Translations under genes and position numbers: made by a program
IMG/VR virus record: IMGVR_UViG_3300042881_006586
Length of the DNA stretch: 64,000 nucleotides
Source of the DNA: a virus
Direction: 5' to 3' (one strand)
The notes under the pieces: generated by a model
Told to the model about the DNA's origin: nothing
Seen by the model: the letters and a program-made list of their open reading frames with translations, nothing else
Database searches by the model: none
Shown: piece by piece, positions 13,612 through 63,324 of the stretch
How the letters are laid out: every line of letters starts with the position of its first letter
Position numbering within the stretch: the first letter of the stretch is position 1

Positions 13612-14190
13612 ATGAATGAGAGTATTATTTTAAAATGTAGATTTGAGGTCGCAAATTGCGACCATAAATTTTATTTAGAGAAGCTTAGAAAATACTCAAA
13701 TGAAACAAAAATTATTTCTATTGAAGAGAAATATTATCATAAAGAAATAGAAGAGTATTCTTTTGAATTTGATGGATATATAACAAAAACTATAAAAATA
13801 TTTAAAGCGAAACTGAAATTCGGAAAAACCGAATTTTTGGCATTGATAGAAAACGAAGTTATCAAAATAAAAAATGCTGATGAACTTATAAAGTTAACAT
13901 CAGCAAATGATATAGAAAATTTAGGTTTCGTTTACATTATTAAATCCAAGTTAGGATATAAAATAGGTTATTCAAAAGAAATTCACAAAAGAAACAAAAT
14001 TTTTAATGTGAAACTGCCATTTCAATGGGAGTTTGCAAAAATATTTTGTTTGAAGGATTATAAGCTTTTTGAGAAATTTCTTCATGGTGCTTACAGTTTA
14101 AAAAAAATAAATGGCGAATGGTTTGATTTAAATGAAAATGATTTAGTTACTATTGAAAGATTTTATGAAAAAATCAAACTCCCCAAGTAA
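13612..14190 (+). CDS. GIY-YIG (MUG113/T5orf172-like) nuclease domain protein
   Basis: GFVYII...YKIGYS...R...EKFLH...GEWFDL. Confidence 0.8.
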   Translation: MNESIILKCRFEVANCDHKFYLEKLRKYSNETKIISIEEKYYHKEIEEYSFEFDGYITKTIKIFKAKLKFGKTEFLALIENEVIKIKNADELIKLTSANDIENLGFVYIIKSKLGYKIGYSKEIHKRNKIFNVKLPFQWEFAKIFCLKDYKLFEKFLHGAYSLKKINGEWFDLNENDLVTIERFYEKIKLPK

Positions 14191-16988: not shown

Positions 16989-18779
16989 GTGAGTAATATT
17001 AAAAAAAATACAAACAAAATATTTGATATAAAATTAAACAATTGCAACTATTGGGATTTTTACCTCTCAATGGATGCATCAAGTGATTGTTTTGTTTGTG
17101 ATAATTTAATTACAGGAGATGTAGTAGCTACTTTTGATTTTGATAATATTTCAGGGTTGTGTAGTACTGTAACATGGGAAAATGCAACTTCTTTCAATAA
17201 AGACCTTTGTGATATTGGATTAACAGGTTATGATAATCGTTTTGTAGATTGGTACACAGGGGAAACTTTTAATCCTTCAGGTGATACAACTTTCTGTGTA
17301 AAAAGAGTTTCAGGAGATACATACTGTTATGAAATGAATCATATGCCTGCTTATGGAGTAGAACCTGAACATATTCAATTCTGTGGTGGTTTTTTCCAAG
17401 GATTTTACAGGCTTCATGGGTATGATTATGATGTTCTTCCGAATATGTATTATAAAGGTTGGACAAAAGAATTTTGGCTCAAAAGAACCGATTGCCCTTC
17501 AGGAGAAACTGTAACTATTACAGGTGAAACAATTACTTATGAAGAAACCGAATTAAATGTTATTGAAACCATTGAAATTTGGCAAACAGATGTCATATCA
17601 GGAGGTACTTGTACAGATAAATTTCAATTGAATGAAGTTTATCCTGATAACAAAGGGATATTTTATTTTTGGGGATTGAGAGCTGAAAATAAGTTTTGTG
17701 CCTTTTCACCTTTTTCAGAATTGACAACTTGTGAAGGATTAAGTCTTGCTCCAAAGATAACAGAAATTCCTTTTGAACCTGATGTCAATCCGTTTTTATA
17801 TTATACAAGAAGAACTGCTTATTGTACAGATGAGCCTAATTCAACTGCAGAATTGATTGATTGCTGTGATGGTATTATTAATAATGCTTTAGCTTTCAGA
17901 GTTACAGATGATGGAGAAATTGGATTGAGATTGATGACAACTACAGGTGAATGTATGTTAGTTGGGGATTCAATAATGTTCTCAGGAAGTCCTGTTGTTG
18001 AAGAATTTTATTCTAAAAAGAATCTTGTTAAAAAAGACAAATGGTATCATGTTACATATAGATTTGAGCCATATGAAAGACATCACTGTATAGGTTATAG
18101 AGTTAGTGCAGGTATCCTTTCAGTTTTTGTAGATGGATTTTTGAAATTGAAAATCGATGGATTTCCTGAATTTATTCCTTATGAATTAAATGAAATTCCT
18201 GAGAAGCAATTGGGAGTTCCATTTAATATAAGTCTTGGAGGTGGAACACAGGGTCTTTTGGAAAGTTATACTTTTTCAGGTCTTACTGAATCTTTTGATT
18301 TAACAGGATATACTTTATGTAATTATATTTCAAAGGTAATTGCACCATGTACTTTTAATGGGATTGTAATAAACGGTGAAAGGATTGTAAGCCCAAAATT
18401 CACAGTTCATGAGGCTGATTTAATAAAAGCTTGGTTAGAAATGCATGTCAAAAGTATGGGTGAAATTGAAATAGAACCTTATTATATGGGTGATAGGGAT
18501 TCTATAAAAATAACATTCAATGCAGTTATCGATAAATTAGACTATATATTATTAGAAAAAGGAGTTTCTTGTATAGTTCAAACTAATTGTATAGATGTGC
18601 CTCCTTTTAATGGTAGATGTGGCTATTTGGAAGATAACTTTGCAGGGACATTTATTGGAGGAATTGGTGAGTTTAGACTGCATGATAGACCTCTTTGTTT
18701 GCAAGAAATTAGATGTAACTTTGAATTAGAAAAAGCAAAATATAATCGTAATAGAGACAGAATAGAATGCGAAATATGA
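16989..18779 (+). CDS. Cys-rich virion protein with LamG/concanavalin-A-like domain
   Basis: KWYHVT...LSVFVDG...FIGGIGEFRLHDRPL; GTG start. Confidence 0.6.
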   Translation: MSNIKKNTNKIFDIKLNNCNYWDFYLSMDASSDCFVCDNLITGDVVATFDFDNISGLCSTVTWENATSFNKDLCDIGLTGYDNRFVDWYTGETFNPSGDTTFCVKRVSGDTYCYEMNHMPAYGVEPEHIQFCGGFFQGFYRLHGYDYDVLPNMYYKGWTKEFWLKRTDCPSGETVTITGETITYEETELNVIETIEIWQTDVISGGTCTDKFQLNEVYPDNKGIFYFWGLRAENKFCAFSPFSELTTCEGLSLAPKITEIPFEPDVNPFLYYTRRTAYCTDEPNSTAELIDCCDGIINNALAFRVTDDGEIGLRLMTTTGECMLVGDSIMFSGSPVVEEFYSKKNLVKKDKWYHVTYRFEPYERHHCIGYRVSAGILSVFVDGFLKLKIDGFPEFIPYELNEIPEKQLGVPFNISLGGGTQGLLESYTFSGLTESFDLTGYTLCNYISKVIAPCTFNGIVINGERIVSPKFTVHEADLIKAWLEMHVKSMGEIEIEPYYMGDRDSIKITFNAVIDKLDYILLEKGVSCIVQTNCIDVPPFNGRCGYLEDNFAGTFIGGIGEFRLHDRPLCLQEIRCNFELEKAKYNRNRDRIECEI

Positions 18780-18783
18780 AAAT
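18732..18783 (+). repeat. 52-bp direct repeat, copy 1 (3' end of the LamG gene)
   Basis: 49/52 identical to 19437-19488. Confidence 0.9.
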
Positions 18784-19438
18784 ATTAATAACTGAAGAAC
18801 AATATAAACTTCTAAGGGAAGTTGATAAAGATGGAATTGGGACTATTGATGATATTAATAAGAAGTTTAATTATAAAATAGGTAAGATGATTGGTTACGG
18901 TAAATATAGTTTTGTTTTTGAATACGAGGATGATAAGGTTGTTAAGATAAAGAATAATAATAATAATAATTATAATGATTATGGTTTTTTTAAAACATAT
19001 GATATAGGGGAATTTACTTTTAATGAAGATGTATTAACAGTAAATGAAAAACATTTAGCAGTTTATAACGATAAGTTATATTATGTTATAATGGAAAAAT
19101 TAAATATAGATAAAGATTTAATTAATAGCTTAGATACTGTTGAATTTGTTATTGAAAGCTTTATGGAGCATGCTAAAATAAAAAATACTACAACTAAACT
19201 GAATTGGCTGTATCAAAATTTTGAAAATGATGATATTTTAATGAAGCTTATTGATTTTTCTAAAGAAAAAATATTTAAATACCAAAGAGAAATGGATGAA
19301 TTTATTTCAATTATGACAGACCTTTATCAATTATTTTTAAAAATGAAGCAAAAAGGTTTAAATTGGAGGGATATGCATAGTGGAAATTTTGCATACAATT
19401 CGAATATGGAATTAACACCATTTGATATGGAATTTTAA
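18776..19438 (+). CDS. protein-kinase-like fold protein
   Basis: IGYGKYSFVF Gly loop, VVKI lysine, YVIMEKL, DMHSGN catalytic loop, PFDME. Confidence 0.8.
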   Translation: MKILITEEQYKLLREVDKDGIGTIDDINKKFNYKIGKMIGYGKYSFVFEYEDDKVVKIKNNNNNNYNDYGFFKTYDIGEFTFNEDVLTVNEKHLAVYNDKLYYVIMEKLNIDKDLINSLDTVEFVIESFMEHAKIKNTTTKLNWLYQNFENDDILMKLIDFSKEKIFKYQREMDEFISIMTDLYQLFLKMKQKGLNWRDMHSGNFAYNSNMELTPFDMEF

Positions 19439-19488
19439 AGAAAAATATAATCATAATAGAGACAGAATAGAATGCGAATTATGAAAAT
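19437..19488 (+). repeat. 52-bp direct repeat, copy 2
   Basis: matches 18732-18783. Confidence 0.9.
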
Positions 19489-21589
19489 GAAATCCTTAAT
19501 AGAAATTTATAACTTAGTTTTAGAATCAAAAAAAACTGAAGAACAGTCTTTAAACATATTGAATAAAGTCAATGTTCCTGATGCAAATAAAATTCTTGAA
19601 GATTTAAAATCAATCGACAAGTCTGATAATCAAAAGAATTTGCCTTTTATGGCAACTATTGTCACATGGAATCTTAATGATTCAAATATTATTAATAATA
19701 TGAATTCTATCTTTGAAAAGTATAATGAATTGTTAAAAAACAATAACATAAAACCTATGCTATTAACCCAAAATAAAATTACTATAGGTAATGATACTTT
19801 CAATAATTTTCTTAAATTGGCTGAACATATTGATGGAATACATACTGATTTTAGTTATATACAGAAAAGAAAAAAAGAGTCATTTATAGTATATGAAAAT
19901 GAAGATACTCCTTTGTTTAGTTCAAATGGAATAGATGTTTACGATGGAACTGAAGTTGGAAAATGTATAAAATACACTCAAGGGAGATTAACAGGTAAAA
20001 AATATAGTTTCTGTATTGGTCAACCAATGAATACAATATATCAATCATATAGAGATAAAAAAGTATCTACATTTTATTTTATTGTAGATAGAAATAGATT
20101 TAAAACAAATTCGGATGGTTCAGTAAATCTTGATGACCCATTACATATTGTTGTATTTGATATGACTAAGAATGGAATTCAATTGACAGATGCAGATAAT
20201 AAAACAGGAAATATTGCGAAATATGGAACAAATGTTCAAAGATATGTTTCCTATCTGAAATCAAAAGGAATCCCTGTAGATAAGCTTGTAAATAAACCTA
20301 AAACTCCTGAAGAGGAAAAAGAGGATAAACTTCTTGGTAAATCAAATAAATCATTAGAATGGTTTATAAAACTTCCATATGAGATGAAATCAAAATATAT
20401 AGGAAGAGGAAATGAGCTTACAGATAAACAATTTGATATCATATTTAAAGATAAATATTTATTAAATCAATATGTAAATATTGGTTCAGCTTTGCCTGAA
20501 TATCAGTTTAAAAAGTTATTTTATAATTTGCCTGCATTAAAATCTTATATAAGAACAAGGCAAATTGCTGTTAAAAATGGTAGTTCATATGAATTTTATG
20601 AACAAAATTTAACAGACGAGCAATTTGATATCATAATTAAAAATGATGATATATTAAAACAATATATAAATACAGGTTCAGCCATACCTGAATATCAATT
20701 TAAAAAGTTGTTTTATAATTTGCCTGCATATAAAACTTATATGAAAGCAAGAGCAATTGCCAATCAGAAATATTGGGATTATAATGATTATGAAATAAAT
20801 TTAACATCTGAACAATTTGATATTTTATTAAAAGATGAAGATGCATTAACATATTATTTTAATACAGGTGCTGCATTATCAGAAGATAATTTTAAAATAA
20901 TATCAGGGATACCATCATTATATAATACATATATGATAGCAAGAGGAAATATGATTAAAATTCCTTATACAGTTAATTATGATAATCATACTGATAATTA
21001 TACAAATAATGCTGCAATTAGTTATTATAAATCATATGAACTACCATTTGAATATATTGATAAATTAAAAAATATGGTTGAAAGAGGATTAGATTCTGCA
21101 CATAAGTATGCATCTAAATTAAAATTAGACGAAGAACAATTTATAGAAAAATATTATAAAAATATAACAAAGGCAAGAAAATATTATATAGGTTGGGTAG
21201 GAGAATTAGCGGATTTGTATAATGAAAGTTCAATTTTTTTAGAAGATAAAAATATTTCAGAAATAACAGATGATTTACTTAAATTAAAAAAAGCTGAATA
21301 CTTAAATTTAAGAAATAATAATATATCTTTTATACCTAAAGGGTTTTCTAATTTAAAATTAGAAGTTCTAAGTTTAGATGATAACAATTTATCTGAAATT
21401 TCTGAAGAAATATGTAATATGAAAACATTAATAGAGTTAACTTTAAGAAATAATAATATTTCAAAAATACCTGATTCTATAAAAAATCTAAGAAGATTAG
21501 AAGATTTAGACCTTAGAGGTAATCCTTTACCAAATGAGGAAATACAAAAAGTAAAGAGATTATTAAGAAAAACTGATATAAGAATATAA
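19487..21589 (+). CDS. leucine-rich-repeat protein, paralog 1
   Basis: C-terminal LxLxxNxI repeats; central domain shared with 21988; three 64-aa internal repeats. Confidence 0.85.
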   Translation: MKSLIEIYNLVLESKKTEEQSLNILNKVNVPDANKILEDLKSIDKSDNQKNLPFMATIVTWNLNDSNIINNMNSIFEKYNELLKNNNIKPMLLTQNKITIGNDTFNNFLKLAEHIDGIHTDFSYIQKRKKESFIVYENEDTPLFSSNGIDVYDGTEVGKCIKYTQGRLTGKKYSFCIGQPMNTIYQSYRDKKVSTFYFIVDRNRFKTNSDGSVNLDDPLHIVVFDMTKNGIQLTDADNKTGNIAKYGTNVQRYVSYLKSKGIPVDKLVNKPKTPEEEKEDKLLGKSNKSLEWFIKLPYEMKSKYIGRGNELTDKQFDIIFKDKYLLNQYVNIGSALPEYQFKKLFYNLPALKSYIRTRQIAVKNGSSYEFYEQNLTDEQFDIIIKNDDILKQYINTGSAIPEYQFKKLFYNLPAYKTYMKARAIANQKYWDYNDYEINLTSEQFDILLKDEDALTYYFNTGAALSEDNFKIISGIPSLYNTYMIARGNMIKIPYTVNYDNHTDNYTNNAAISYYKSYELPFEYIDKLKNMVERGLDSAHKYASKLKLDEEQFIEKYYKNITKARKYYIGWVGELADLYNESSIFLEDKNISEITDDLLKLKKAEYLNLRNNNISFIPKGFSNLKLEVLSLDDNNLSEISEEICNMKTLIELTLRNNNISKIPDSIKNLRRLEDLDLRGNPLPNEEIQKVKRLLRKTDIRI
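20417..20945 (+). repeat. three tandem 192-bp (64-aa) intragenic repeats
   Basis: LT(D/S)xQFDI units start at 20417, 20609 and 20801. Confidence 0.85.
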
Positions 21590-21622
21590 AAATTAAAGGC
21601 ATTAATTAAAACCTATAAAATA

Positions 21623-21985
21623 ATGGAATTTTTTATTAAACAAAAAGCCACTCTTCCTTATTTGGAATTAGAATTAGTTGAAGATGGGTATAGCGACAAA
21701 AGTAATTTCTTTGATAAACTTCAAAATGCACTTGTAACATTTTCTATGGAAAGTGTTGAAGGCTGCGTTAAGAATATTGTCTGCAGACCTATGGAAGTTA
21801 TCGAAGATGATTGCGGTAAATACTGTGCTAATTGTCAAAAGAAATTCAAAATTATTTACAAATGGAGAGAAAGAGATACTTTGAATAAAGGTAGGTTCTT
21901 AGCAAATATTGAAATTGATTTCCTTGATGGATGTGGTAAATTAATTGTACCAATACGAGAAAAATTATATGTAAGTATTATATAA
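21623..21985 (+). CDS. BppU-N-like virion/baseplate adaptor domain protein
   Basis: FFIKQKATLPYL...VTFSM...YKWRERDT...G.F...LIVPI. Confidence 0.55.
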   Translation: MEFFIKQKATLPYLELELVEDGYSDKSNFFDKLQNALVTFSMESVEGCVKNIVCRPMEVIEDDCGKYCANCQKKFKIIYKWRERDTLNKGRFLANIEIDFLDGCGKLIVPIREKLYVSII

Positions 21986-21988
21986 AAA
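21896..21988 (+). repeat. 93-bp direct repeat, copy 1 (3' end of the 21623 gene)
   Basis: 3 mismatches versus 23620-23712. Confidence 0.9.
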
Positions 21989-23583
21989 TGAAATCCTTAA
22001 TAGAAATTTATAACTTAGTTTTAGAATCAAAAAAAACTGAAGAACAAGCACAAGATATACTGCTAAAATCTAAATTTTCTGAAGAAGAAATTTTTAAAAT
22101 AATAAATGAATTAAAAAAAATTGATACTTCAGAAAATCAAAAATACCTCCCAATGATGGCAACAGTTTTTTCTTGGGGAGAAAAAAATTATGAAACAATT
22201 AAAGATATTTTTGATGATTATGATGAATTATTTTTAAATAATAATATTGGTAAAATGTTTTCATCTAATATGAGAATTAAAATCTTAGAAAAAGATGGTA
22301 AAGAAAAGGAATTTAACGATTTTCTAAAATTTACTGAATATATTCACGGAATTAGAGATAATGCTTATAAAAAGAAATATGGTTATTCTTATGAAGAATA
22401 TAAATCTGAAGATACCCCTATATTAAGTTCAAATGGAATAGATATTTATGAAGCTAATAGTGTAGGGAAATGTATAAAATACACTCAAGGAAAATTAACA
22501 GGTAAATATTATAGTTTTTGTATTGGTCAACCAATGAATACAATGTATCAATCATATAGAGATAAAAAAGTATCTACATTTTATTTTATTGTTGATAGAA
22601 ATAGATTCAAAACAAATTCAAATGGGTCTGTAAATCTTGATGACCCATTACATATTGTTGTATTGGATGTTACATCATACGGTATTGAATTAACAGATGC
22701 AAATAATACAACAGGAAAAGTGGCTGAATATGGTACAAATGTTGATGGATATGTTTCATATTTAAAATCAAAAGGAATCCCTGTAGATAGACTTGTAAAT
22801 AAACCAAAAACTCCTGAAGAAAAAGAAGAAGAAGAACTTCTTGGTAATACAAATGATTCTTTAGAGTGGTTTATGCAATTACCTTATGAAATGAAATCAA
22901 AATATATAGGAAGGGGGCATAAGCTTACAGATGAACAATTTGATATTATTTTATCTGATAAAAAATTATTAAATCAATATTTAAATATAGGTAATACTTT
23001 ATCTGATAGTCAATTTAAAATAATAGAAAATATTCCTTCTGCATTGAATAGTTATATAAAAAGTAGAAAAATTGCTATTTCAAATGGAGAAAAAGTTTCT
23101 TTAGTTGAATTGGATTATTTGCCTTTAGAAACTATAGATGATATTAAATTAATTGATTCTAATCATCCTTTTAGTGATTTTGGAAATAAAAAATTAAAAG
23201 AAATACCTGATTCTATTAGAAATTTAAGGAATTTAATAACTTTAAAATTTATATCTAATGGTATTGAAGAAATACCTGATTGGATAGATGAGTTAAAATA
23301 TTTATCATATATATATTTATCTAATAATAAAATACAGAACTTACCTGAATCAATTACTAATTTAAAATATTTAACAGAATTAGATTTGTCAAATAATAAT
23401 ATTAGAGAATTACCTAATTCGTTCAAAAAATTAACCTCTTTAAAAAAATTAATCCTTTTTGGAAATGAAATCCCTGAAGAAAAAATTATAATTTTAAAAG
23501 AATTATTACCAACGTGCGAAATAGTATATGAACAAAAAGATTTTAATCAATGGAAAAGAAAACAAAGAAGGAGGACAATTTAA
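21988..23583 (+). CDS. leucine-rich-repeat protein, paralog 2
   Basis: first ~59 nt identical to 19487; shared core; C-terminal LRRs. Confidence 0.85.
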   Translation: MKSLIEIYNLVLESKKTEEQAQDILLKSKFSEEEIFKIINELKKIDTSENQKYLPMMATVFSWGEKNYETIKDIFDDYDELFLNNNIGKMFSSNMRIKILEKDGKEKEFNDFLKFTEYIHGIRDNAYKKKYGYSYEEYKSEDTPILSSNGIDIYEANSVGKCIKYTQGKLTGKYYSFCIGQPMNTMYQSYRDKKVSTFYFIVDRNRFKTNSNGSVNLDDPLHIVVLDVTSYGIELTDANNTTGKVAEYGTNVDGYVSYLKSKGIPVDRLVNKPKTPEEKEEEELLGNTNDSLEWFMQLPYEMKSKYIGRGHKLTDEQFDIILSDKKLLNQYLNIGNTLSDSQFKIIENIPSALNSYIKSRKIAISNGEKVSLVELDYLPLETIDDIKLIDSNHPFSDFGNKKLKEIPDSIRNLRNLITLKFISNGIEEIPDWIDELKYLSYIYLSNNKIQNLPESITNLKYLTELDLSNNNIRELPNSFKKLTSLKKLILFGNEIPEEKIIILKELLPTCEIVYEQKDFNQWKRKQRRRTI

Positions 23584-23600
23584 CGAGTTACCTTTTTCAT

Positions 23601-23712
23601 TTTAAACAAAAATATAAGATTCTTAGCGAATATTGAAATTGATTTCCTTGATGGGTGTGGTAAATTAATTATACCAATACGAGAAAAATTATATGTAAGT
23701 ATTATATAAAAA
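23601..23712. pseudogene. chimeric junction scar: polB 3' end fused to the 3' end of the 21623 gene
   Basis: 23601-23618 = 24113-24130; 23620-23712 = 21896-21988. Confidence 0.8.
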
Positions 23713-23739
23713 AAACCGCTCAATTGAGCGGTTTTTTTT
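23708..23739. terminator. bidirectional intrinsic terminator
   Basis: A8-CCGCTCAATTGAGCGG-T8 between convergent genes. Confidence 0.85.
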
Positions 23740-23741
23740 GT

Positions 23742-24065
23742 TTAGTGAAATTTGATAAATTCTTCATCATCACCATAAATTTGTACACCTTTGCGCAAAT
23801 ATTCATCATTTTTTAAATCATATATAGATACAATTTCAGGTCTTTTAGATTCCATTTTTCCTTCAAACATATCATTAAGTATATCTTCTGCTTCAAAAAA
23901 AACATCACGAGAATCTGTAAATTTTTCATATATAAAAAAAGTATCATTCAATATAGATTCTTCATTACGATAAGAATATTCTACCTCATAATAAGGAGTT
24001 TTATTAGTTTCCTCTTTAATAATTCTTTTTACAAGCTGTCTGAGTTCATTTAATGTTATTTTCAT
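23742..24065 (-). CDS. small accessory protein with its own late motif
   Basis: MKITLNELRQLVKRIIKEE leader; ATATTTAT at 24083-24090 on -. Confidence 0.7.
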   Translation of the reverse strand: MKITLNELRQLVKRIIKEETNKTPYYEVEYSYRNEESILNDTFFIYEKFTDSRDVFFEAEDILNDMFEGKMESKRPEIVSIYDLKNDEYLRKGVQIYGDDEEFIKFH

Positions 24066-24113
24066 AGTATTATTTTTTAATAATAAATATTATTCAAAAT
24101 AAAAAAAAACCAT

Positions 24114-27100
24114 TTAAACAAAAATATAAGGTGGATTTTCATTGTCAATATAAAATTGTTCTCCAATGAATCTTATCAATTCTACTCCTGTATATATTTT
24201 TTCATTAGGATTCAAAATTGATTCATTTGAGAATTCTCTTACTTCTAAAGAATTACTATCAAATGTATACATTCTATCAACAAACACATCTTTATAATCA
24301 AAAGGTGAATTTGGTGAAAGGTTAGCCATATCCCAAAATTCATATTCTTCATCCGTGATAATCATCAGTTCATTCATATCTTGTTGTTTATCTTCTTTAC
24401 CATCAAGAGGATACCCATGAACCAATTGGATTTCATCATCAGTAAACCAAGCTCTTTCATTTGCTTCTCTTTTGTACATTTTGTTAGGAGAAGGTATTTT
24501 GCTTCTGATATCAGGATGGAATACAATCCATATCTGTTCCAAAGCCTTGTTTAGCTTATTGATATACTTCATTGCATTATACTTCATTTTTGCATCCAAT
24601 TTATCATTTGGTACATAAGAGCAATAAAGAACATCTTTTTCGGTAATTACTTCTATGATGGTGATTTCACCATCTTTTTTGGTTTTCTTTTTCTTTATTT
24701 TGAATTTGATAGCATCAACATCTAATATTGATTCTAAATTGGTTTGTTTTGATACCTTTGCCTTTTTGGTTAATCCGTTTATATCTGAAAATTTTTGAAA
24801 AGTTGAATTGAAAAAGAATGTATCTTCATTGTAACATTTTTCGATTACATTCTTTAAATTTTCTTTTCCATCACTCAAATATTTTTCAAGTTTTTTCTGA
24901 GCAATTTCCGCAGCTTTTTCTCCTACAATAAAATAACCGATAGTATCTTTAACAGTGGCTCTGTCAGCTTCTTCTGCAGCATCATTATCATTGATGTAAT
25001 AAATCCAATCCCCAATTTCTACTTGCAAATTATTTTTGACTGCAAGCTCCATATGAGCTTGTTTATTGTATCTTCCTTCAAAAACACCTTTTTTATAATC
25101 ATCTAATGCCTTTTTGACTTTCATTTTACTTGCAATCTTTCTTGCAATCAAATCTCCATTATAGATTTTTTTGATATAAGTGTAATAGGCATCCAAGAAT
25201 TTTGTAGGATTGTTCAAAAGCAAATCTAAAAGGTTGGCATCATAAAAATCTACGATATATTCACTTTGCTTTTTATTGACAAGTCCGCCTCCAACATGGG
25301 AAATTTTATACTTTCCTTTGGATTCTTTTACATAAGTGAAATTACCTTTAGAAAAATTGACACAGGAGACAGCAAATTCATCAATTGCAACACCTGTATA
25401 GCCAATCATAAATTTATCGTTGTATTCCGCCACGAAAGCCTCTATACCACTATAAGCTTTATCTTTTTCTGTTAACCAAGACTTGCCTGTGCCAACATAA
25501 GAATAATTTTCGATTCCTTTAGGAATAACAAAGTTTGCTCCATCTGTATGGAAATATACAATTTTAAACCCATCCTTACCGAAATATTTAATCATATGGC
25601 GCATATTCTGTCTACTTGCACATGTAATATGCCAAGCACTTTGAATATGGCAGAATGGAGAAACATCAGGAGCACCTAACATTCCATAGAAACTATTAAT
25701 AAGAATTTTCAATGGAAGCTGTTTTTTATCATAGAACTGCTCCATTTCGCTATTCTTTTCTTTCTTAGCTTTATTCTTCATGTCTTTATAATGAAGTCTA
25801 CTTCTAAGAGCATATTCAAGAACCGATTTGTACACATTTGTAATATCTATATCAGGATTTTTACAATGTGCCAAAAATGTTGCAGGATATTGAGAAGAAA
25901 AGTCGATTTTTACAATATCCTCATGATAACCTGAATCAACCATCCCAAGAAGCCCTCCTGTATATTTCTTAGGTTTTTCATAGTCAGGAATAGCTGCACA
26001 ATTCAAATATGACCAAGCTGATAATATCAATTTCCATACAGTCGCATTTCCTGTAGTTGAAACTTTCTCATAAGAAGTCGGCAACCATTTCGCAAGAGAA
26101 AATGTCGCTTGAGAATAAAGGCTATCGAGCAGATATGGTTCATCTAAGTCATCAGAAAGATATCGTTGAACAATATAAGAACCACTTACAGTTTGATGCT
26201 TGTCAAAATCAATATGCTTATAAAAACTTTTTACATCTTTTAAGTTTTCAATCAATTCTTTACAATTGGAAACAAAATATTTCCAAAGAACCGTATTTTT
26301 TAATTCTGAACCAAAATTTTCAATAGGAACAACCAATTCATCATAATCTACAATCTTTTCATAGATTTTTTCGAATTCTGTATCTAATAAATCCCCATCA
26401 GAAATCAATTTGCCATTTTCATGGATTTGAATTGTAAATACATTGAAGCATTTATCTAAGAGAGGAATATCATTATATTCATTTGAACATCTAAGATATA
26501 TTTTTTTGATATTTCCGTAAAAATGTCCTTTTTCACCCTCATGTATTTTTTCAGAAGAAAAAAGAGATTCTTTTGAGATTTCTTTGCTTGATACAAAGTA
26601 AGAACCATCCTCATCATTGAAATAATAAGGTCTTTTATCTGAAGAAATTTTTCCAATTAAATCCCCTTGAACATAAACACGATTCTTCTTAGCAAGATTG
26701 GCATGTTTGATGTTATCTTTCAATTTGGCGTTAGGCAAAGACTTATCTTGTTCTGCAGCTCTTTTTACTGCAAACATAACATCACAGAAGTTTTTACCAA
26801 ACATTTTAGTTTGAGTATATCTTTCTGTTGTACCACCAATTTTTACTACTGAATTTTCTATTTTATAGTAAGTAAAATAGTTATATACCTTTCCATAAGT
26901 TTGATAAGCTTCTGCTACAGTATTTCTTATGTATTGTAATGCAGTTTTTTTACCTGCTTCACCATTTCTTCCATTTTCTTCTGCAACACATCCTAAAAGC
27001 TCCAATCGCTTTTCCATAAAAGGAAAATCGAAATCTTCACCATTATAAGTTAGAATTAAATCAGGGTCAAGTTCTGCGATTATTTTATATGATTCTGTGA

Positions 27101-28448
27101 GAATTGCAATTTCTTCCTTGTCATTATCTGCACTCAATAATTTCAAATATCCATCGGTAGTCTTGATACCTATTTCGAAAATTCTACCAAGTTCAGGTCT
27201 TAGTGCAGCTATTTCAATTTCCTCATTACCTTTTTGAGCCTTTGTTTCAATATCTAATATTAGAACATTTAAATCCTCATAGTTTTCAATCCCTTTGAAA
27301 AGCCTTCTGCCTGTTTGAATCATATATTGCTCAAGAGGCTGCAAAGAATAGATTTGGGATTCGATATTGTAAGTAAAGGAACAACCTAAACTTTGGATAT
27401 AATATTTTAAATCGTTCTTATCTAAGTTGTCATCAAAAGTATAACAATCGATAACAAGTTTATTTAATTTATCTTCATCCAATTTTATTTTGAAAGCTTG
27501 CTTGATTGTAGGCAAATTTTCAATTAGTGCATTATAAACACTACTAAAGTCTTTATCAATTAAATCATTAATAAAGGTCTTATTTATTTTGAACGCTATG
27601 GATGGGTATATCTTTTTGTAAAGATTGATAATTGTATCAAAATTTACTGAATCTTTTGTAAATGGGTTAAAATAATCTCTAAACCTATAAAGACTTATAT
27701 AGAAATAAATTAAACTGTTTAAATCTTCAGAAATATAGTTTACAAACTCTTTTAGCTTGAAATCATCCAAATAAATGTTTCCTCTTGAAGAAAGACCTGC
27801 TTCTTTGAAGAAGTCAACTAAATTCACATAAGAACCAACGATTTTTCTTTGGAAGTAAGGATTATCACTGATGACAGGATTTTCTCTTTGGGATTTGATG
27901 GTAATTTTATACTTAAATCCCTCTTCAATACGTTTTACAATTGAATCATCAAAAGAAGTTATCTGTTCTTCGATTTGAATTCCGTATAATTTTTGCTTTT
28001 TGGTTACAATCGCAGACCATTCTTCAAAACTTTCAATTTTATATCTAATAACATATTTGTCATCAGTTTTTTCAATTATTCTTACTTCGTTGCCATCGAT
28101 ATCTTTTACTTTTCCATTTGGCAAAAGTACTTGATTTTTAGACACCTTTCTCGAATCTAAAGTAACTATATTGTATCTAAAAAAAGATGAAGTTTTGAAT
28201 TGCTTACTCCATACAAAGGGGACTAATCCATTCTTATGAGTTACTCTTGGAGTACCATTTTGAAAGGCTTTACAAAAGATAATATCGACATCGTTATTAT
28301 TTCTTGATGTTTCTATTGAACGTATGCCCAACATCTCATCACCAAAAATTTCTTTTTCATAACTACCATTCAAAAAATCAACAATTACTTGTTCATTGAT
28401 TGTAGGTTGAGTTCTTTTACTTTTTGGTTTGAAAATATTGAATTGCAT
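24114..28448 (-). CDS. polB: family B DNA polymerase with large insertions
   Basis: ExoI LDIET, ExoII YNGEDFD, ExoIII YLSDD; motif A DFSSQYP, B KILINSFYG, C YFHTDG. Confidence 0.9.
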   Translation of the reverse strand: MQFNIFKPKSKRTQPTINEQVIVDFLNGSYEKEIFGDEMLGIRSIETSRNNNDVDIIFCKAFQNGTPRVTHKNGLVPFVWSKQFKTSSFFRYNIVTLDSRKVSKNQVLLPNGKVKDIDGNEVRIIEKTDDKYVIRYKIESFEEWSAIVTKKQKLYGIQIEEQITSFDDSIVKRIEEGFKYKITIKSQRENPVISDNPYFQRKIVGSYVNLVDFFKEAGLSSRGNIYLDDFKLKEFVNYISEDLNSLIYFYISLYRFRDYFNPFTKDSVNFDTIINLYKKIYPSIAFKINKTFINDLIDKDFSSVYNALIENLPTIKQAFKIKLDEDKLNKLVIDCYTFDDNLDKNDLKYYIQSLGCSFTYNIESQIYSLQPLEQYMIQTGRRLFKGIENYEDLNVLILDIETKAQKGNEEIEIAALRPELGRIFEIGIKTTDGYLKLLSADNDKEEIAILTESYKIIAELDPDLILTYNGEDFDFPFMEKRLELLGCVAEENGRNGEAGKKTALQYIRNTVAEAYQTYGKVYNYFTYYKIENSVVKIGGTTERYTQTKMFGKNFCDVMFAVKRAAEQDKSLPNAKLKDNIKHANLAKKNRVYVQGDLIGKISSDKRPYYFNDEDGSYFVSSKEISKESLFSSEKIHEGEKGHFYGNIKKIYLRCSNEYNDIPLLDKCFNVFTIQIHENGKLISDGDLLDTEFEKIYEKIVDYDELVVPIENFGSELKNTVLWKYFVSNCKELIENLKDVKSFYKHIDFDKHQTVSGSYIVQRYLSDDLDEPYLLDSLYSQATFSLAKWLPTSYEKVSTTGNATVWKLILSAWSYLNCAAIPDYEKPKKYTGGLLGMVDSGYHEDIVKIDFSSQYPATFLAHCKNPDIDITNVYKSVLEYALRSRLHYKDMKNKAKKEKNSEMEQFYDKKQLPLKILINSFYGMLGAPDVSPFCHIQSAWHITCASRQNMRHMIKYFGKDGFKIVYFHTDGANFVIPKGIENYSYVGTGKSWLTEKDKAYSGIEAFVAEYNDKFMIGYTGVAIDEFAVSCVNFSKGNFTYVKESKGKYKISHVGGGLVNKKQSEYIVDFYDANLLDLLLNNPTKFLDAYYTYIKKIYNGDLIARKIASKMKVKKALDDYKKGVFEGRYNKQAHMELAVKNNLQVEIGDWIYYINDNDAAEEADRATVKDTIGYFIVGEKAAEIAQKKLEKYLSDGKENLKNVIEKCYNEDTFFFNSTFQKFSDINGLTKKAKVSKQTNLESILDVDAIKFKIKKKKTKKDGEITIIEVITEKDVLYCSYVPNDKLDAKMKYNAMKYINKLNKALEQIWIVFHPDIRSKIPSPNKMYKREANERAWFTDDEIQLVHGYPLDGKEDKQQDMNELMIITDEEYEFWDMANLSPNSPFDYKDVFVDRMYTFDSNSLEVREFSNESILNPNEKIYTGVELIRFIGEQFYIDNENPPYIFV

Positions 28449-39302: not shown

Positions 39303-39314
39303 AAAATTAATAAA

Positions 39315-39500
39315 ATGATAGATTGTACAAAAGTAAGAAAAATGGTTATCAATCAAATTTTGCCTAATGGTGAAGTTTTGCAATCAGTTATCTATTTTGA
39401 TATTGATTCAGGAGACCAATTGACAGAAAACCAAGTTTCAAAATGTACTAACATACAAGCATTGACTTTTTCATGTGCTGTAGTATGTAACCCTGCTTAA
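39315..39500 (+). CDS. small Cys-containing protein, paralog A
   Basis: MIDCTKVRKMVINQILPNG shared with the next gene. Confidence 0.75.
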   Translation: MIDCTKVRKMVINQILPNGEVLQSVIYFDIDSGDQLTENQVSKCTNIQALTFSCAVVCNPA

Positions 39501-39502
39501 AT

Positions 39503-39766
39503 ATGATAGATTGCACTAAGGTAAGAAAAATGGTTATAAACCAAATTCTTCCTAATGGAGATGTTTTACAATCAACGATATATTTTGATATTGATACAGG
39601 TAGTCAACTAACTGAAAGTCAAGTTTCAAAATGTAAAAATATTGAATCTATCAATTTTATTTGTGCAGATATATGTACAGATGAAGTTATAACTCCTAAT
39701 TGTTGGTCTACTCCTATTGAAGGATGTTGGGAACTACCATCAGGGGAATTTTGGGAATTACCTTAA
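39503..39766 (+). CDS. small Cys-containing protein, paralog B with CW/WELP extension
   Basis: tandem duplicate of 39315. Confidence 0.75.
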   Translation: MIDCTKVRKMVINQILPNGDVLQSTIYFDIDTGSQLTESQVSKCKNIESINFICADICTDEVITPNCWSTPIEGCWELPSGEFWELP

Positions 39767-60858: not shown

Positions 60859-63324
60859 ATGAAAAGTTTTGAAGACAAATCTCTTGCTTATTTTGGTAAA
60901 GATTATGAACTTAAAGTTCTAAAGAATCTTATAGGTACTTATGAACAAAAAGGGAATGGTGTTTTAAGAGATGATTCTTTCGGAAGAAAGATGATAAATA
61001 AAATGACTGCTGAACATTTCACAAATGATTTGGCAAGAAGAATTTTTGTCTTTTTGAAAAACTATTATGCTTCTAAGAATAAAATACCTTTCTATGATAC
61101 CATATCTTCTTTTGTAAGAGCTAAAGTGGAAAATGAATATGAACAAGAAATGATTTTTCAATACCTTTTAGACATTGAAAAAGTTTCTATGGAAGATTCC
61201 GAATGGGTTCAAGAGAATACTATCAGTTTCATAAATACAAAGAATCTTATTTCCTCTTGGAATAAATGTCTTGAAAATTATATCAACAAAGGAAAATATG
61301 ACAAGTATTCTGAGATATCAGAAATAATGACAGAAGCTATCGTTCAAATGAACGATGAAGCTCCTTTGGAGGCATTTGTTGCAGGTGACTATAGACACTT
61401 AGAAGAAGGAGAAAGACATCCTATTCCTACAGGAATTGAAGCACTTGATATTGATATGAATGGTGGGTTAGCCTATGGAGAATTTGCTTTGGTTATTGCT
61501 CCTTCGGGAATTGGTAAAGCTCAACCTTCTTTTTCAAAAGTTTATACTCCTGATGGGTATAAATTAATGAAAGACATAAAAGTTGGAGATAAAGTTTTTG
61601 GTTCTGATGGTAAACCTCAAACAGTATTAGGTGTTTTTCCTCAAGGTCAAAAAGAATACTATAAAGTCACAATGAATGATAATTCTTTCACATATTGTTG
61701 TAAAGAACATTTATGGACTGTTTATAAAGAAAATAAAAAGTTTACTTTACCATTAGAAAAAATAATGAATGATTTAAAGTATAATGGTAAAAGAAAGGCA
61801 TTAAAAAATAGAATACCTATAACTCCTGCAGTTGAATATGGTAAAAAAGATAATTATATTCATTCATATGTATTAGGAGTTTTATTAGGGGATGGTTGTT
61901 TATATGAAAATGGCAGTATAACTCTTTCTTGTAATGAAGATGAAGTTATAAAAGAATTTTCTTCAAAATTAAATAAAGGATGTTCTTTAAATTATAAAGA
62001 TAGATATGATTATAGAGTCATTTGTATAAAAGGATATGCAAATCCTATAAAAACTTGTTTAAGAGAATTAGGTTTATTAGGTAAAAAATCTGATACTAAA
62101 TTTATACCTGATAGTTATATGTTTACTTCTATTGAAGATAGGTTAGAATTATTAAGAGGATTAATAGATTCTGATGGATATGTTGGAAAAGGTGGGTGTA
62201 TTCAATATTCTTCAGTTTCAATAAACCTTATAAATAATATAAGAGATTTAATTAAATCGTTAGGTGGACATTGTGGTAAAATAAGAGCAAGAAATAAAAA
62301 ATATACTTATAAAGGTCAAAAAAAAGATGGCAAAATTTCTTATAATATTGCGTTTACCTTTAATGATGATATAAAATTATCTTATATTCAAAGAAAACAA
62401 GAAAGAATTAAACCAAGAAATTTATATAGTAAAAGTAAATATATTAAAGAAGTATCTTTAGAAGGTGTAGAAGAGTGTTATTGTATAAAAGTTTCCAATG
62501 AAGATAGTCTTTATGTTACAGATGATTTCATTTTAACTCATAATACCACGTTTGCCACACATACTGCAAATAACGGTGCAAAATTTGGCTATAATGTTCT
62601 TCAGATATTCTTTGAAGATACTGTTGAACAAATCAAAATGAAGCATATTTCCAAGTTAATTGGAAAACCTATCAATTTTTCTTCTAACAAAAAGAACAGA
62701 AAAACTGTTATGAAAGAAACAGATTCTAAGTTAGAGAAAATAAGAAATAGCGGAGGGTGTTTAGTACCATTATCAATGGATTCAACAGAAACAACTGTAG
62801 AAGACATTAAAAAGGTATATAAGAGAGCAATGGAACAAGGGGTTTATTTCCCTGATACAGGCGAATTGAAAAAGATAAAATTTGACTTAGTTCTTATTGA
62901 CTATATAGATTGTATTAAATCTAAAAGGCATTATGAAAAACAATGGGAAGGTCAAACTGAAATTGCAAGGGATTTAGAAAAACTTTGCGGAAAAGAAGAA
63001 TTGAATTTTGCATGTTGGGTCTTCACTCAAGGAACAAAAGGTTCTTTGAATACAAAAATAGTTACAGGTGAACAAATGGGCGGTGACTTTGGAAAGTATA
63101 AAGTAGCACATTTTGTTATGTCTTTTGCAAGAGATTTGGAACAACAATCACAAAATAAAGCAAATGTTACAATTCTAAAAAATCGTATGGGAAGAGCAGG
63201 AATTCTATATGAAGATTGTATATTTGATAATGGTAATATGTTAATAGAATTTAACAAAGAAGAATTTTTGACTGAAAAAACTGTAAATGATACGCTTGTA
63301 TCTTATTCAAATTCTTATGAATAG
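60859..63324 (+). CDS. dnaB: DnaB/gp41-like replicative helicase containing an intein
   Basis: IPTG, GGL, APSGIGK|TT split Walker A, IFFE, LIDY, KNRMG. Confidence 0.9.
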   Translation: MKSFEDKSLAYFGKDYELKVLKNLIGTYEQKGNGVLRDDSFGRKMINKMTAEHFTNDLARRIFVFLKNYYASKNKIPFYDTISSFVRAKVENEYEQEMIFQYLLDIEKVSMEDSEWVQENTISFINTKNLISSWNKCLENYINKGKYDKYSEISEIMTEAIVQMNDEAPLEAFVAGDYRHLEEGERHPIPTGIEALDIDMNGGLAYGEFALVIAPSGIGKAQPSFSKVYTPDGYKLMKDIKVGDKVFGSDGKPQTVLGVFPQGQKEYYKVTMNDNSFTYCCKEHLWTVYKENKKFTLPLEKIMNDLKYNGKRKALKNRIPITPAVEYGKKDNYIHSYVLGVLLGDGCLYENGSITLSCNEDEVIKEFSSKLNKGCSLNYKDRYDYRVICIKGYANPIKTCLRELGLLGKKSDTKFIPDSYMFTSIEDRLELLRGLIDSDGYVGKGGCIQYSSVSINLINNIRDLIKSLGGHCGKIRARNKKYTYKGQKKDGKISYNIAFTFNDDIKLSYIQRKQERIKPRNLYSKSKYIKEVSLEGVEECYCIKVSNEDSLYVTDDFILTHNTTFATHTANNGAKFGYNVLQIFFEDTVEQIKMKHISKLIGKPINFSSNKKNRKTVMKETDSKLEKIRNSGGCLVPLSMDSTETTVEDIKKVYKRAMEQGVYFPDTGELKKIKFDLVLIDYIDCIKSKRHYEKQWEGQTEIARDLEKLCGKEELNFACWVFTQGTKGSLNTKIVTGEQMGGDFGKYKVAHFVMSFARDLEQQSQNKANVTILKNRMGRAGILYEDCIFDNGNMLIEFNKEEFLTEKTVNDTLVSYSNSYE
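61519..62544 (+). mobile_element. 342-aa intein with LAGLIDADG homing endonuclease
   Basis: starts AQP after GK, ends THN before T; LGVLLGDG and LRGLIDSDG. Confidence 0.9.

Follow-up and report, generated by a model that had tools for sequence, protein, structure and literature searches.

The locus described in Table 1 raises the question of how a one-gene slot between two core genes came to hold two genes. It lies in a 64,000-nt stretch of DNA (the window) from an uncultured jumbo phage, for which no cultured close relative was found in the phage collection searched. The left wall of the slot, gene A, has 51 homologues and adjoins polB in all close relatives; here, LRR2 and a 107-aa gene stand between the two, and each wall has left a second copy of its end in the middle of the slot. 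In the first-pass annotation, an 18-nt copy of the polB 3' end including the stop codon was linked through a single base to a 93-bp copy of the gene A end with 3 mismatches (21896-21988 against 23620-23712). Both copies were confirmed, and the linking base is present, but the copies really overlap by 2 nt, since base 23619 is a standing gene A allele (found in the relatives L010, L026, and L028) and not a joining base. In its full extent, the gene A repeat starts at 21893 and 23617 and spans 96 bp with 4 mismatches (E = 3e-38), the longest perfect run being 41 nt.

Table 1. Positions in the window of the features of the stacked slot and the neighbouring slot.
Feature	Position	Strand	Remarks
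596-aa core gene 3' end, copy 1	18732..18783	+	52-bp repeat
220-aa kinase-like cargo	18776..19438	+	assigned by motifs only
596-aa gene end, copy 2	19437..19488	+	fused to stop of kinase-like gene
LRR1	19487..21589	+	LRR2 paralogue in neighbouring slot
gene A	21623..21985	+	conserved 120-aa core gene; left wall of slot
gene A 3' end, copy 1	21893..21988	+	96-bp repeat
LRR2	21988..23583	+	531-aa cargo: leader, conserved phage domain, leucine-rich repeats (Pfam LRR)
spacer	23584..23600		precedes polB stop in LRR2-only genomes; identical in L001, L200, L202
stranded polB 3' tip with stop codon	23601..23618	-	exact match to 24113-24130 and to polB tip of L200/L202
crossover point	23617..23618		2-nt overlap (AG) of polB tip and gene A copy
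gene A 3' end, copy 2	23617..23712	+	non-coding; derived from another allele
hairpin, bidirectional terminator-like	23708-23739		symmetric, ~-20 kcal/mol
107-aa cargo	23742..24065	-	N-terminal leader; homologue of 157-aa slot gene of L198
TATTTAT motif	24083..24089	-	24 nt upstream of 107-aa gene; putative late promoter
polB true 3' tip	24113..24130	-	matches stranded copy exactly
polB ORF	24114-28448	-	right wall of slot

Three of the four differences between the gene A copies are synonymous, lie at third positions, and are also present in other strains; the fourth, private to the window, is the one change (Val to Ile) among the 30 residues that the second copy would encode. Neutral decay of the resident gene was rejected as the source of this copy, because the differences are standing alleles. 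Exact 18-20-mers are shared elsewhere in the AT-rich window by three unrelated pairs. For the polB-tip region, the longest match ending at any other of the ~64,000 window positions is 12 nt, and therefore the 18-nt match that abuts the second repeat is not due to chance. As read from the sequence, the true microhomology at the joint is only 2 nt within a patchy similarity, the polB tip resembling the gene A segment at the joint more closely than 99.4% of control windows do. A microhomology of 4 nt, obtained with the window's own alleles, was rejected, because the joint carries the other allele.

The junction was found letter for letter in L003, L004, L005, and L006, which come from four different samples, and in L198, which comes from another project; L003 is a single 8.6-kb contig leading from gene A through the joint to the 107-aa gene. 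LRR2 is common to co-occurring lineages and breaks several contigs, as might be expected of a strain-chimeric assembly, but such an artefact is very unlikely indeed, because the joint recurs in the assemblies of four other samples; altogether, it is contained, with private SNPs nearby, in five assemblies that are independent of one another and differ in sample and pipeline. The contigs L199 and L201 stop exactly at the joint, which suggests that two forms exist within one sample. L198 represents a second lineage, in which polB is 74.8% and LRR2 98.1% identical in nucleotides to the window, while 689 nt to the left and 39 nt to the right of the joint are without a difference. In the window, the gene A copy starts with the L010/L026 allele instead of the window's own. 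Behind the same joint, the copy in L198 continues with L033-type alleles and is followed by a 157-aa homologue of the 107-aa gene. This combination of an identical joint with another allele and a homologous gene indicates that the joint moves and that its second slot is probably exchanged. A single origin is suggested by the absence of any difference around the joint.

Alternative cargo between the same core genes had been proposed, and this was borne out by the relatives, in which the slot is empty in 19 loci and elsewhere contains LRR520, LRR505, LRR531, a 330-aa gene, or three genes. Comparison of relatives also indicated that foreign tracts extend only ~20-75 nt into the flanks of the slot. 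Relatives with LRR2 only, which the first-pass annotation had suggested looking for, were found: in L200 and L202, the left half of the joint is present exactly, spacer and 18-nt polB tip alike, and the tip continues into polB. LRR2 of L198 differs by 1-3 nt from that of the LRR2-only L200-L202, and the polB tips of L200 and L202 are unlike the product expected from L198. Exact look-up, a search for homologues, a viral scan, and two DNA patterns all failed to reveal a counterpart with only the 107-aa gene, and they detected no genome with only the 157-aa gene either. Thus, of the out-of-register microhomology recombination between two genomes that had been put forward, the joint and its left half were recovered but the right-hand parent was not.

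We are confident that an illegitimate joint was formed and was followed by ordinary recombination, which is the core common to the readings discussed here. The reading that we prefer, with a probability of roughly 0.55, is that a single out-of-register crossover at short homology between two genomes came first and that ordinary homologous recombination then acted on its product. Comparison of relatives shows that the interval from gene A to polB is a cargo slot, which they fill or empty through recombination in the core-gene ends on either side. During a co-infection, an out-of-register crossover would once have linked a genome carrying LRR2 to another one, leading from the 18th base of polB over the 2-nt overlap to a point in gene A that lies 93 nt from its end; besides LRR2 and the slot content of the other genome, the product would have retained the tip of polB and the end of gene A, both of them dead. 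T4 forms such joints at homologies of 2-13 nt (PMC9391042, PMC8262927), and no dedicated enzyme would be needed for the founding joint. Later, the joint would have behaved like any other DNA and passed between lineages by homologous recombination, the left arm being provided by LRR2 and the right arm by the polB tip. The second gene A end is probably a second landing site for homologous exchange; if this dead end recombines with incoming alleles, the one slot would therefore in effect now be two. The presence of the left parent type in L200 and L202 supports the two-genome route. Against it, no parent with only the 107-aa or 157-aa gene was found, the start of the gene A copy matches most closely an allele of empty-slot strains, a search of the 184-kb partial relative yielded no RecA/UvsX homologue, and the allele patterns are too shuffled for the flanks to be assigned to parents.

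The allele of empty-slot strains at the start of the copy would be expected if sister genomes had undergone a T4-style tandem duplication, with the duplicated slot empty or holding one cargo gene, and the copies had been refilled later by allelic exchange. This would be a true accordion, and T4 and T6 amplify anti-defence genes likewise. It also agrees with the difference in second cargo between the window and L198, with the terminator hairpin of the window, which is unlike that of empty-slot strains, and with the fact that exchange at the polB tip needs only ~20 nt. However, in close relatives the slot was not found to hold two copies of one kind, to be empty in its second half, or to comprise more than two units, and refilling of the first unit demands a crossover inside 18 nt; this origin is therefore regarded as unlikely. 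As for the collapse to either cargo that the repeats were said to allow, both products would be intact genes, but no collapsed form that differs from a never-stacked parent was found; on the preferred reading, loss of LRR2 through the 96-bp repeat would be easier than that of the 107-aa gene, which depends on the 18-bp repeat.

The neighbouring slot bears a similar scar, in which the end of a 596-aa core gene is repeated behind the kinase-like gene; this joint (19437-19488) recurs in L203 with other alleles. For the kinase-like protein there was no Pfam or PDB sequence match, its predicted model had a pLDDT of 56, and the fold search was uninformative. A kinase-like body combined with an LRR-type leader is encoded by P0101, on an 867-bp contig. 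A parent with only this gene was searched for and not found. The possibility that its junction is another polB tip (18 of 20 nt match the LRR2 joint) was largely rejected, because distant homologues natively end in the same last codons, and the remaining bases are supplied by an allele of the 596-aa gene. Besides 23617-23712 and 19437-19488, a displaced dead gene end is located at 903-982 of L191. Such scars number none in 184 kb or 49 kb of relatives and one in 41 kb, and no clear scar was seen in distant loci (~1.4 Mb); the repeats in L077 and G001 were rejected as scars, being tandem paralogues. Duplicated gene ends do occur elsewhere, but in the window and its relatives they are rare, comprising the kinase junction and that of one other phage, L191. 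Since scars are rare, stacking is better regarded as an accident that happens now and then, and whose product persists and spreads, than as an accordion system, and the earlier description of an accordion for accumulating genes was overstated, with neither copy-number expansion nor repeat collapse seen.

The kinase-like gene and L191 have one-sided scars, with the old gene end after the cargo, as in the circle entry proposed for rhs loci. A segment comprising a gene A end, LRR2, and a polB tip could have left an LRR2-only genome as a loop closed at the 2-nt overlap, and one crossover within the 96-bp gene A end could then have integrated this circle into a genome with a 107-type gene, which would yield exactly the observed layout. 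Encapsidated mini-circles with cargo genes are known from T4-type phages (PMC2839356), but these PeSL circles arise between repeats that are long and conserved, none of which is present here, and two rare steps are required instead of one, so that we consider capture of a circle possible but not probable. Alternatively, a dedicated, sequence-directed cassette system similar to integrons might repeatedly place genes with leaders at the ends of core genes. Such a system would fit the recurrence of the joint in two lineages, the presence of two scars within 5 kb and of a third in L191, and the leader on every cargo. It is nevertheless very unlikely, because the joints at LRR2, the kinase-like gene, and L191 have no common motif beyond A-rich sequence once it is allowed for how the kinase-like gene natively ends, Rfam gave no match, the distances from breakpoint to stop vary, scars are rare, and the perfect identity around the LRR2 joint suggests one origin. 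Furthermore, the suggestion that the process is integrase-free agreed with the searches: a scan of 40 window proteins and of the partial relatives G001-G003 detected no integrase or resolvase. In the partial relatives, profiles of RecA, tyrosine integrase, and resolvase had no match.

The cargo itself has common traits. A leader ending in (I/L/F/V)-x-E is found on all slot cargo, and among homologues of the LRR2 domain it is present in 86 of 131, vs 7% of control windows. The phage domain family of LRR2 comprises 385 clusters, in which it is fused to LRR or ankyrin repeats; it had no clear match among solved structures, and the predicted model of the LRR2 core (pLDDT 91) reached a best Z of 3.9 vs solved chains. 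The 107-aa protein has only weak look-alikes in the Atlas, while the slot of L040 holds a 152-aa gene similar to it in leader and sequence. The TATTTAT motif also precedes the tail sheath gene, likewise at -24; LRR2 has no promoter motif of its own and no TATTTAT directly before it, and a sigma-70 promoter scan gave hits at chance level only. Based on the leaders and the putative late-type promoter, the cargo probably consists of proteins that are loaded into the capsid and injected into the host, and the slots point to candidate packaged anti-host proteins. It is doubtful that the clade routinely builds arrays of such effectors by an integrase-free cycle, with cargo travelling together with a core-gene end piece, perhaps as small circles. 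Each entry would then leave a spare end as a new transferable landing site, leader-coding sequences would provide extra crossover points, and slots would increase in number and be filled and emptied even between species.

The change from a one-gene slot to a two-gene slot is usually inferred from old mosaics. Here, public data contain, at base resolution, the empty slot, the single-cargo parent, the stacked state, and the same joint with other cargo, and because all of these states are visible, the long-standing idea of modular exchange with occasional illegitimate accretion becomes directly testable in a natural population. The suggested route leads from one accident to a lasting new slot. 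The joint chemistry is already known from T4, modular exchange in phages is likewise known, and the mechanism is ordinary; the locus is a clear illustration of how phages add extra genes without an integrase.

Among known systems, the segmental amplifications of dmd-tifA in T4 and of tRNA-Tyr/segB in T6, termed phage genomic accordions (PMC9391042, PMC13096335), share with this locus a novel joint at very short homology (2 nt here, with direct repeats of 96 and 18 bp), the lack of an integrase, and cargo suspected to be of anti-defence type. In contrast, they amplify identical units to many copies with reversible collapse and carry an endonuclease gene inside the unit, whereas here two different genes were stacked once, no tandem copies of one unit are present, and the unit contains no endonuclease gene. 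In the modular exchange of RB49 and phi1 through PeSL cassettes and mini-circles (PMC2839356), cargo is likewise swapped at fixed positions by way of short conserved linker homology, possibly through circles. Our locus resembles it in the alternative slot contents, the crossovers in the flanks, the contrast between LRR2 and polB identity, and the promoter motif and terminator that the 107-aa gene has of its own. However, PeSL homology is a repeated promoter-terminator element, whereas here it is the coding ends of two core genes; no such element recurs at the borders, where hairpins vary between alleles, and the duplicate end is accidental and local.

The internal-protein loci of T-even phages with their capsid targeting sequence (PMC3012670; Repoila 1994, cited in PMC2839356) are also hypervariable slots for unrelated proteins sharing only a short leader that ends in hydrophobic-x-Glu. 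Our slots differ from these in cargo of up to 700 aa with LRRs and in their position among structural and replication genes. The lambdoid morons, in the summary of PMC2839356, are single genes with their own promoter and terminator, which the 107-aa gene resembles in lying on the opposite strand between conserved genes; LRR2 is without such signals, and movement here uses flanking homology. Finally, in the C-terminal displacement of rhs loci (PMC2935791), the incoming unit likewise brings a fresh 3' end and pushes the old one downstream as a dead direct repeat, which makes it the best match for the scars of the kinase-like gene and L191. The new tip of an rhs locus belongs to the protein, whereas here the core protein is almost unchanged, the gene A copy involves no swap of a functional C-terminal domain, and the payload is a separate gene.

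The first-pass annotation placed two cargo genes, LRR2 and the 107-aa gene, around a chimeric joint between gene A and polB, and recomputation upheld all of its junction coordinates. The polB repeat is 18 bp long and exact, stop included. The two copies of the 96-bp gene A repeat differ at four positions; at three of these the change is synonymous, and other strains carry it as a standing gene A allele. The single base said to link the two repeats is itself a standing gene A allele in other strains, and therefore there is no linker and the polB-tip and gene A copies overlap by 2 nt. At all other positions in the window the longest match to the polB-tip region is at most 12 nt, and an isolated 18-mer repeat alone could be due to chance here. 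The joint was also found in contigs of four other samples, two of which have their own SNPs close by, and a chimeric assembly is therefore very unlikely. Two further contigs (L199 and L201) end exactly at the joint, a pattern that assembly behaviour would be expected to produce if stacked and unstacked forms co-occur in the sample.

Coordinates of features in the window and in loci of relatives (L-numbers)
Feature	Sequence	Coordinates	Strand	Remark
T5orf172/MUG113 gene	window	13612-14190		GIY-YIG-like
596-aa gene, end	window	18732-18783	+	
Kinase-like gene	window	18776-19438	+	
Copied 596-aa gene end	window	19437-19488	+	
LRR1	window	19487-21589	+	
Spacer after LRR1	window	21590-21622		start resembles first terminator arm of empty A-polB slot; end resembles empty upstream slot of L033
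Gene A	window	21623-21985	+	120-aa core gene
LRR2	window	21988-23583	+	531 aa
LRR2 core	window	22285-22980		
polB-tip copy	window	23601-23618		
Gene A 3'-end copy	window	23617-23712		
107-aa gene	window	23742-24065	-	
polB	window	24114-28448	-	family B polymerase
Matching stretches of the two junctions	window	19432-19451; 23599-23618		18/20 bases
11-nt leader match	window	18791; 19535; 22036		
Short paralogous genes	window	39312-39489; 39500-39677		tandem, 76% identical
DnaB-like helicase gene	window	60859-63324		with intein (Hint and LAGLIDADG domains)
TnpB element	L019	1727-2872		IS200/IS605-type, at stop of 596-aa gene homologue, upstream slot
Remnant of 107-type upstream region	L033	8878-8910		~23 nt
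Leader-only stub	L040	6381-6424		~11 codons, LRR cargo genes on both sides, joined to 18-nt near-copy of gene A start region
Putative decayed scar	L145	5726-5855; 6243-6372		~45 nt like upstream gene's end
80-bp repeat	L191	903-982; 1634-1713		

Relatives with LRR2 alone, which the first-pass annotation suggested seeking, were found in L200 and L202, where LRR2 is followed by the identical spacer and the identical 18-nt tip running into polB; by sequence, these loci represent the joint's left half without stacking. The other parent that it called for, with the 107-aa gene alone, was not found by exact look-up, homologue search, viral scan or two DNA patterns. Indirect support for such a parent comes from L040, which has a similar 152-aa gene in the same slot and orientation, and from L033, in which an LRR gene is followed by the remnant of a 107-type upstream region without the gene itself. 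The best reading, with a probability of roughly 55%, is a single out-of-register crossover at the 2-nt overlap between two co-infecting genomes, which would have been followed by ordinary homologous recombination. Around the joint, the polB tip resembles the gene A segment in patches, with a similarity score exceeded by 0.6% of control windows. This similarity may have helped pairing; the crossover lies 4 nt away from the register of its alignment. Circle capture, which is unlikely, and duplication followed by a swap, which is quite unlikely, yield the same joint as the two-genome crossover, and only the partners differ.

L198, of a second lineage, has an identical joint: the match is perfect over 689 nt on its left and 39 nt on its right. 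Past these 39 nt, the gene A copy has L033 alleles, with neither stop nor terminator. The next gene is a 157-aa homologue of the 107-aa gene and shares its leader and upstream region. LRR2 of L198 differs by 1-3 nt from that of the unstacked L200-L202. In the simplest reading, the joint would have arisen once and been passed on by homologous recombination, with LRR2 as the left arm and ~20 nt of polB as the right, and later exchange would have used the spare gene A end. Alternatively, gene conversion of the gene A copy and independent cargo divergence are possible.

In 19 loci of close relatives with both walls visible, the A-polB slot is empty, with just a hairpin separating gene A from polB; many loci in this tally are repeated samples of one strain. 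In other relatives the slot is occupied by LRR2 alone, by an LRR paralogue of 520 or 505 aa, by a 330-aa gene or by three genes. Variation is as great in the neighbouring gap, which the 596-aa gene and gene A delimit: it is empty or holds genes of 150, 172-178 or 219 aa, two LRR genes or an extra TnpB element. Between the window and the second lineage, identity is 98% for LRR2 but 75% for polB, and foreign sequence penetrates only ~70 nt of gene A and 20-55 nt of polB; therefore, cargo moves by recombination in the extreme ends of the core genes. Over its first kilobase, LRR1 shares 94% identity with the LRR gene that L033 has in the A-polB slot, so transfer of cargo between neighbouring slots has occurred as well, and the mixed spacer after LRR1 hints that this gene shifted from one slot to the other. 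Cargo-bearing alleles (the LRR2-polB gap of L001 and L200; L033; L198) often have no strong hairpin where the LRR and polB genes converge, and the stack in the window restores one. The 184-kb partial relative G001 carries several tandem arrays of LRR paralogues with leaders (in L002 and elsewhere), and in it the block containing the 596-aa gene has the opposite orientation to that in the window.

The proposed scan for other duplicated gene ends retained the kinase-like repeat as a second scar, and the window has just these two. Here the stop of the kinase-like gene, a 220-aa cargo gene whose putative label is motif-based, is joined directly to a 52-bp copy of the end of the 596-aa gene; no gene A piece precedes the copy, so this scar is one-sided. 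L203 has the same joint, and its copy carries four differences, some matching its own resident gene end, suggesting that spare gene ends recombine. The 18/20 match between the two junctions, which within the window only the polB tip shares, is probably a coincidence of native codons. Duplicated gene ends were absent from 184 kb and from 49 kb of sequence from relatives; a 41-kb phage fragment had one, and ~1.4 Mb of distant loci yielded one decayed case at most. In the fragment (L191), the insert is a leader-bearing 152-aa gene that has a promoter motif and hairpin of its own; it sits behind a small gene, and the old 3' end of that gene has been pushed to the far side of the insert. In L145, a distant relative, the possible decayed scar lies ahead of the second of two paralogues. 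Judged from these sequences, such events are recurrent but rare. Collapse via the 96-bp repeat is predicted to remove 1,724 bp including LRR2 and to alter gene A by one residue, and collapse via the 18-bp repeat to remove 512 bp; the claim that the repeats allow a return to either cargo is supported in that both products would be intact, but neither was identified as such. Classical homologous recombination requires ~50 nt or more (PMC8262927), and therefore the two routes should be unequal. The persistence of short duplications only may reflect survivor bias.

Every slot gene begins with a short leader ending in hydrophobic-x-Glu, a motif found near the start of 86 of the 131 LRR2-core homologues versus 7% of control windows, and the upstream motif of the tail sheath gene is also present before the 107-aa gene. 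In P0101, an ENA protein from an 867-bp contig, a kinase-like body is joined to an LRR-type leader at an 11-nt match common to both leader types, and the DNA that codes for the leaders appears to act as a site of crossover. The LRR2 core has a confident predicted fold with no clear solved-structure match; this domain is common to 385 protein clusters and in phage proteins is fused to LRR, ankyrin or other repeats. In this the slot genes resemble T-even internal proteins, which act against host defences and have nothing in common but a capsid targeting sequence (PMC3012670), and we infer that the slot cargo may be effectors. The source is a T4-like jumbo phage: the window (24-34% GC) encodes tail sheath, tube, baseplate and head-tail proteins, a family B polymerase and helicases, its proteins lie on a 163,922-bp contig, and close relatives are on contigs of 272-276 kb. 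No cultured close relative was found in the phage collection; one relative's record is labelled freshwater. The T5orf172/MUG113 gene, ~8 kb from the slot and kept in all close relatives, is a possible source of breaks.

Neither an integrase nor a resolvase turned up among the 40 window proteins scanned or in partial relatives, and searches of the latter, profiles included, gave no RecA. A dedicated system is highly improbable, since the scar joints share no common site and the sequence searched yielded no integrase or resolvase; of the "integrase-free accordion" first proposed, the former part stands to that extent, but "accordion" goes too far, as no repeated like units were found at this slot in close relatives. 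Likewise, in contrast to PeSL cassettes and integrons, the slot has no conserved border element. The way in which the joint would form resembles T4 short-homology recombination (PMC9391042; PMC13096335), acting here on a locus of the modular-exchange type (PMC2839356), and the kind of scar left resembles that of rhs displacement (PMC2935791). To these the present case adds the set of natural states of the slot, and a joint that crossed into a lineage 25% divergent with different second cargo.
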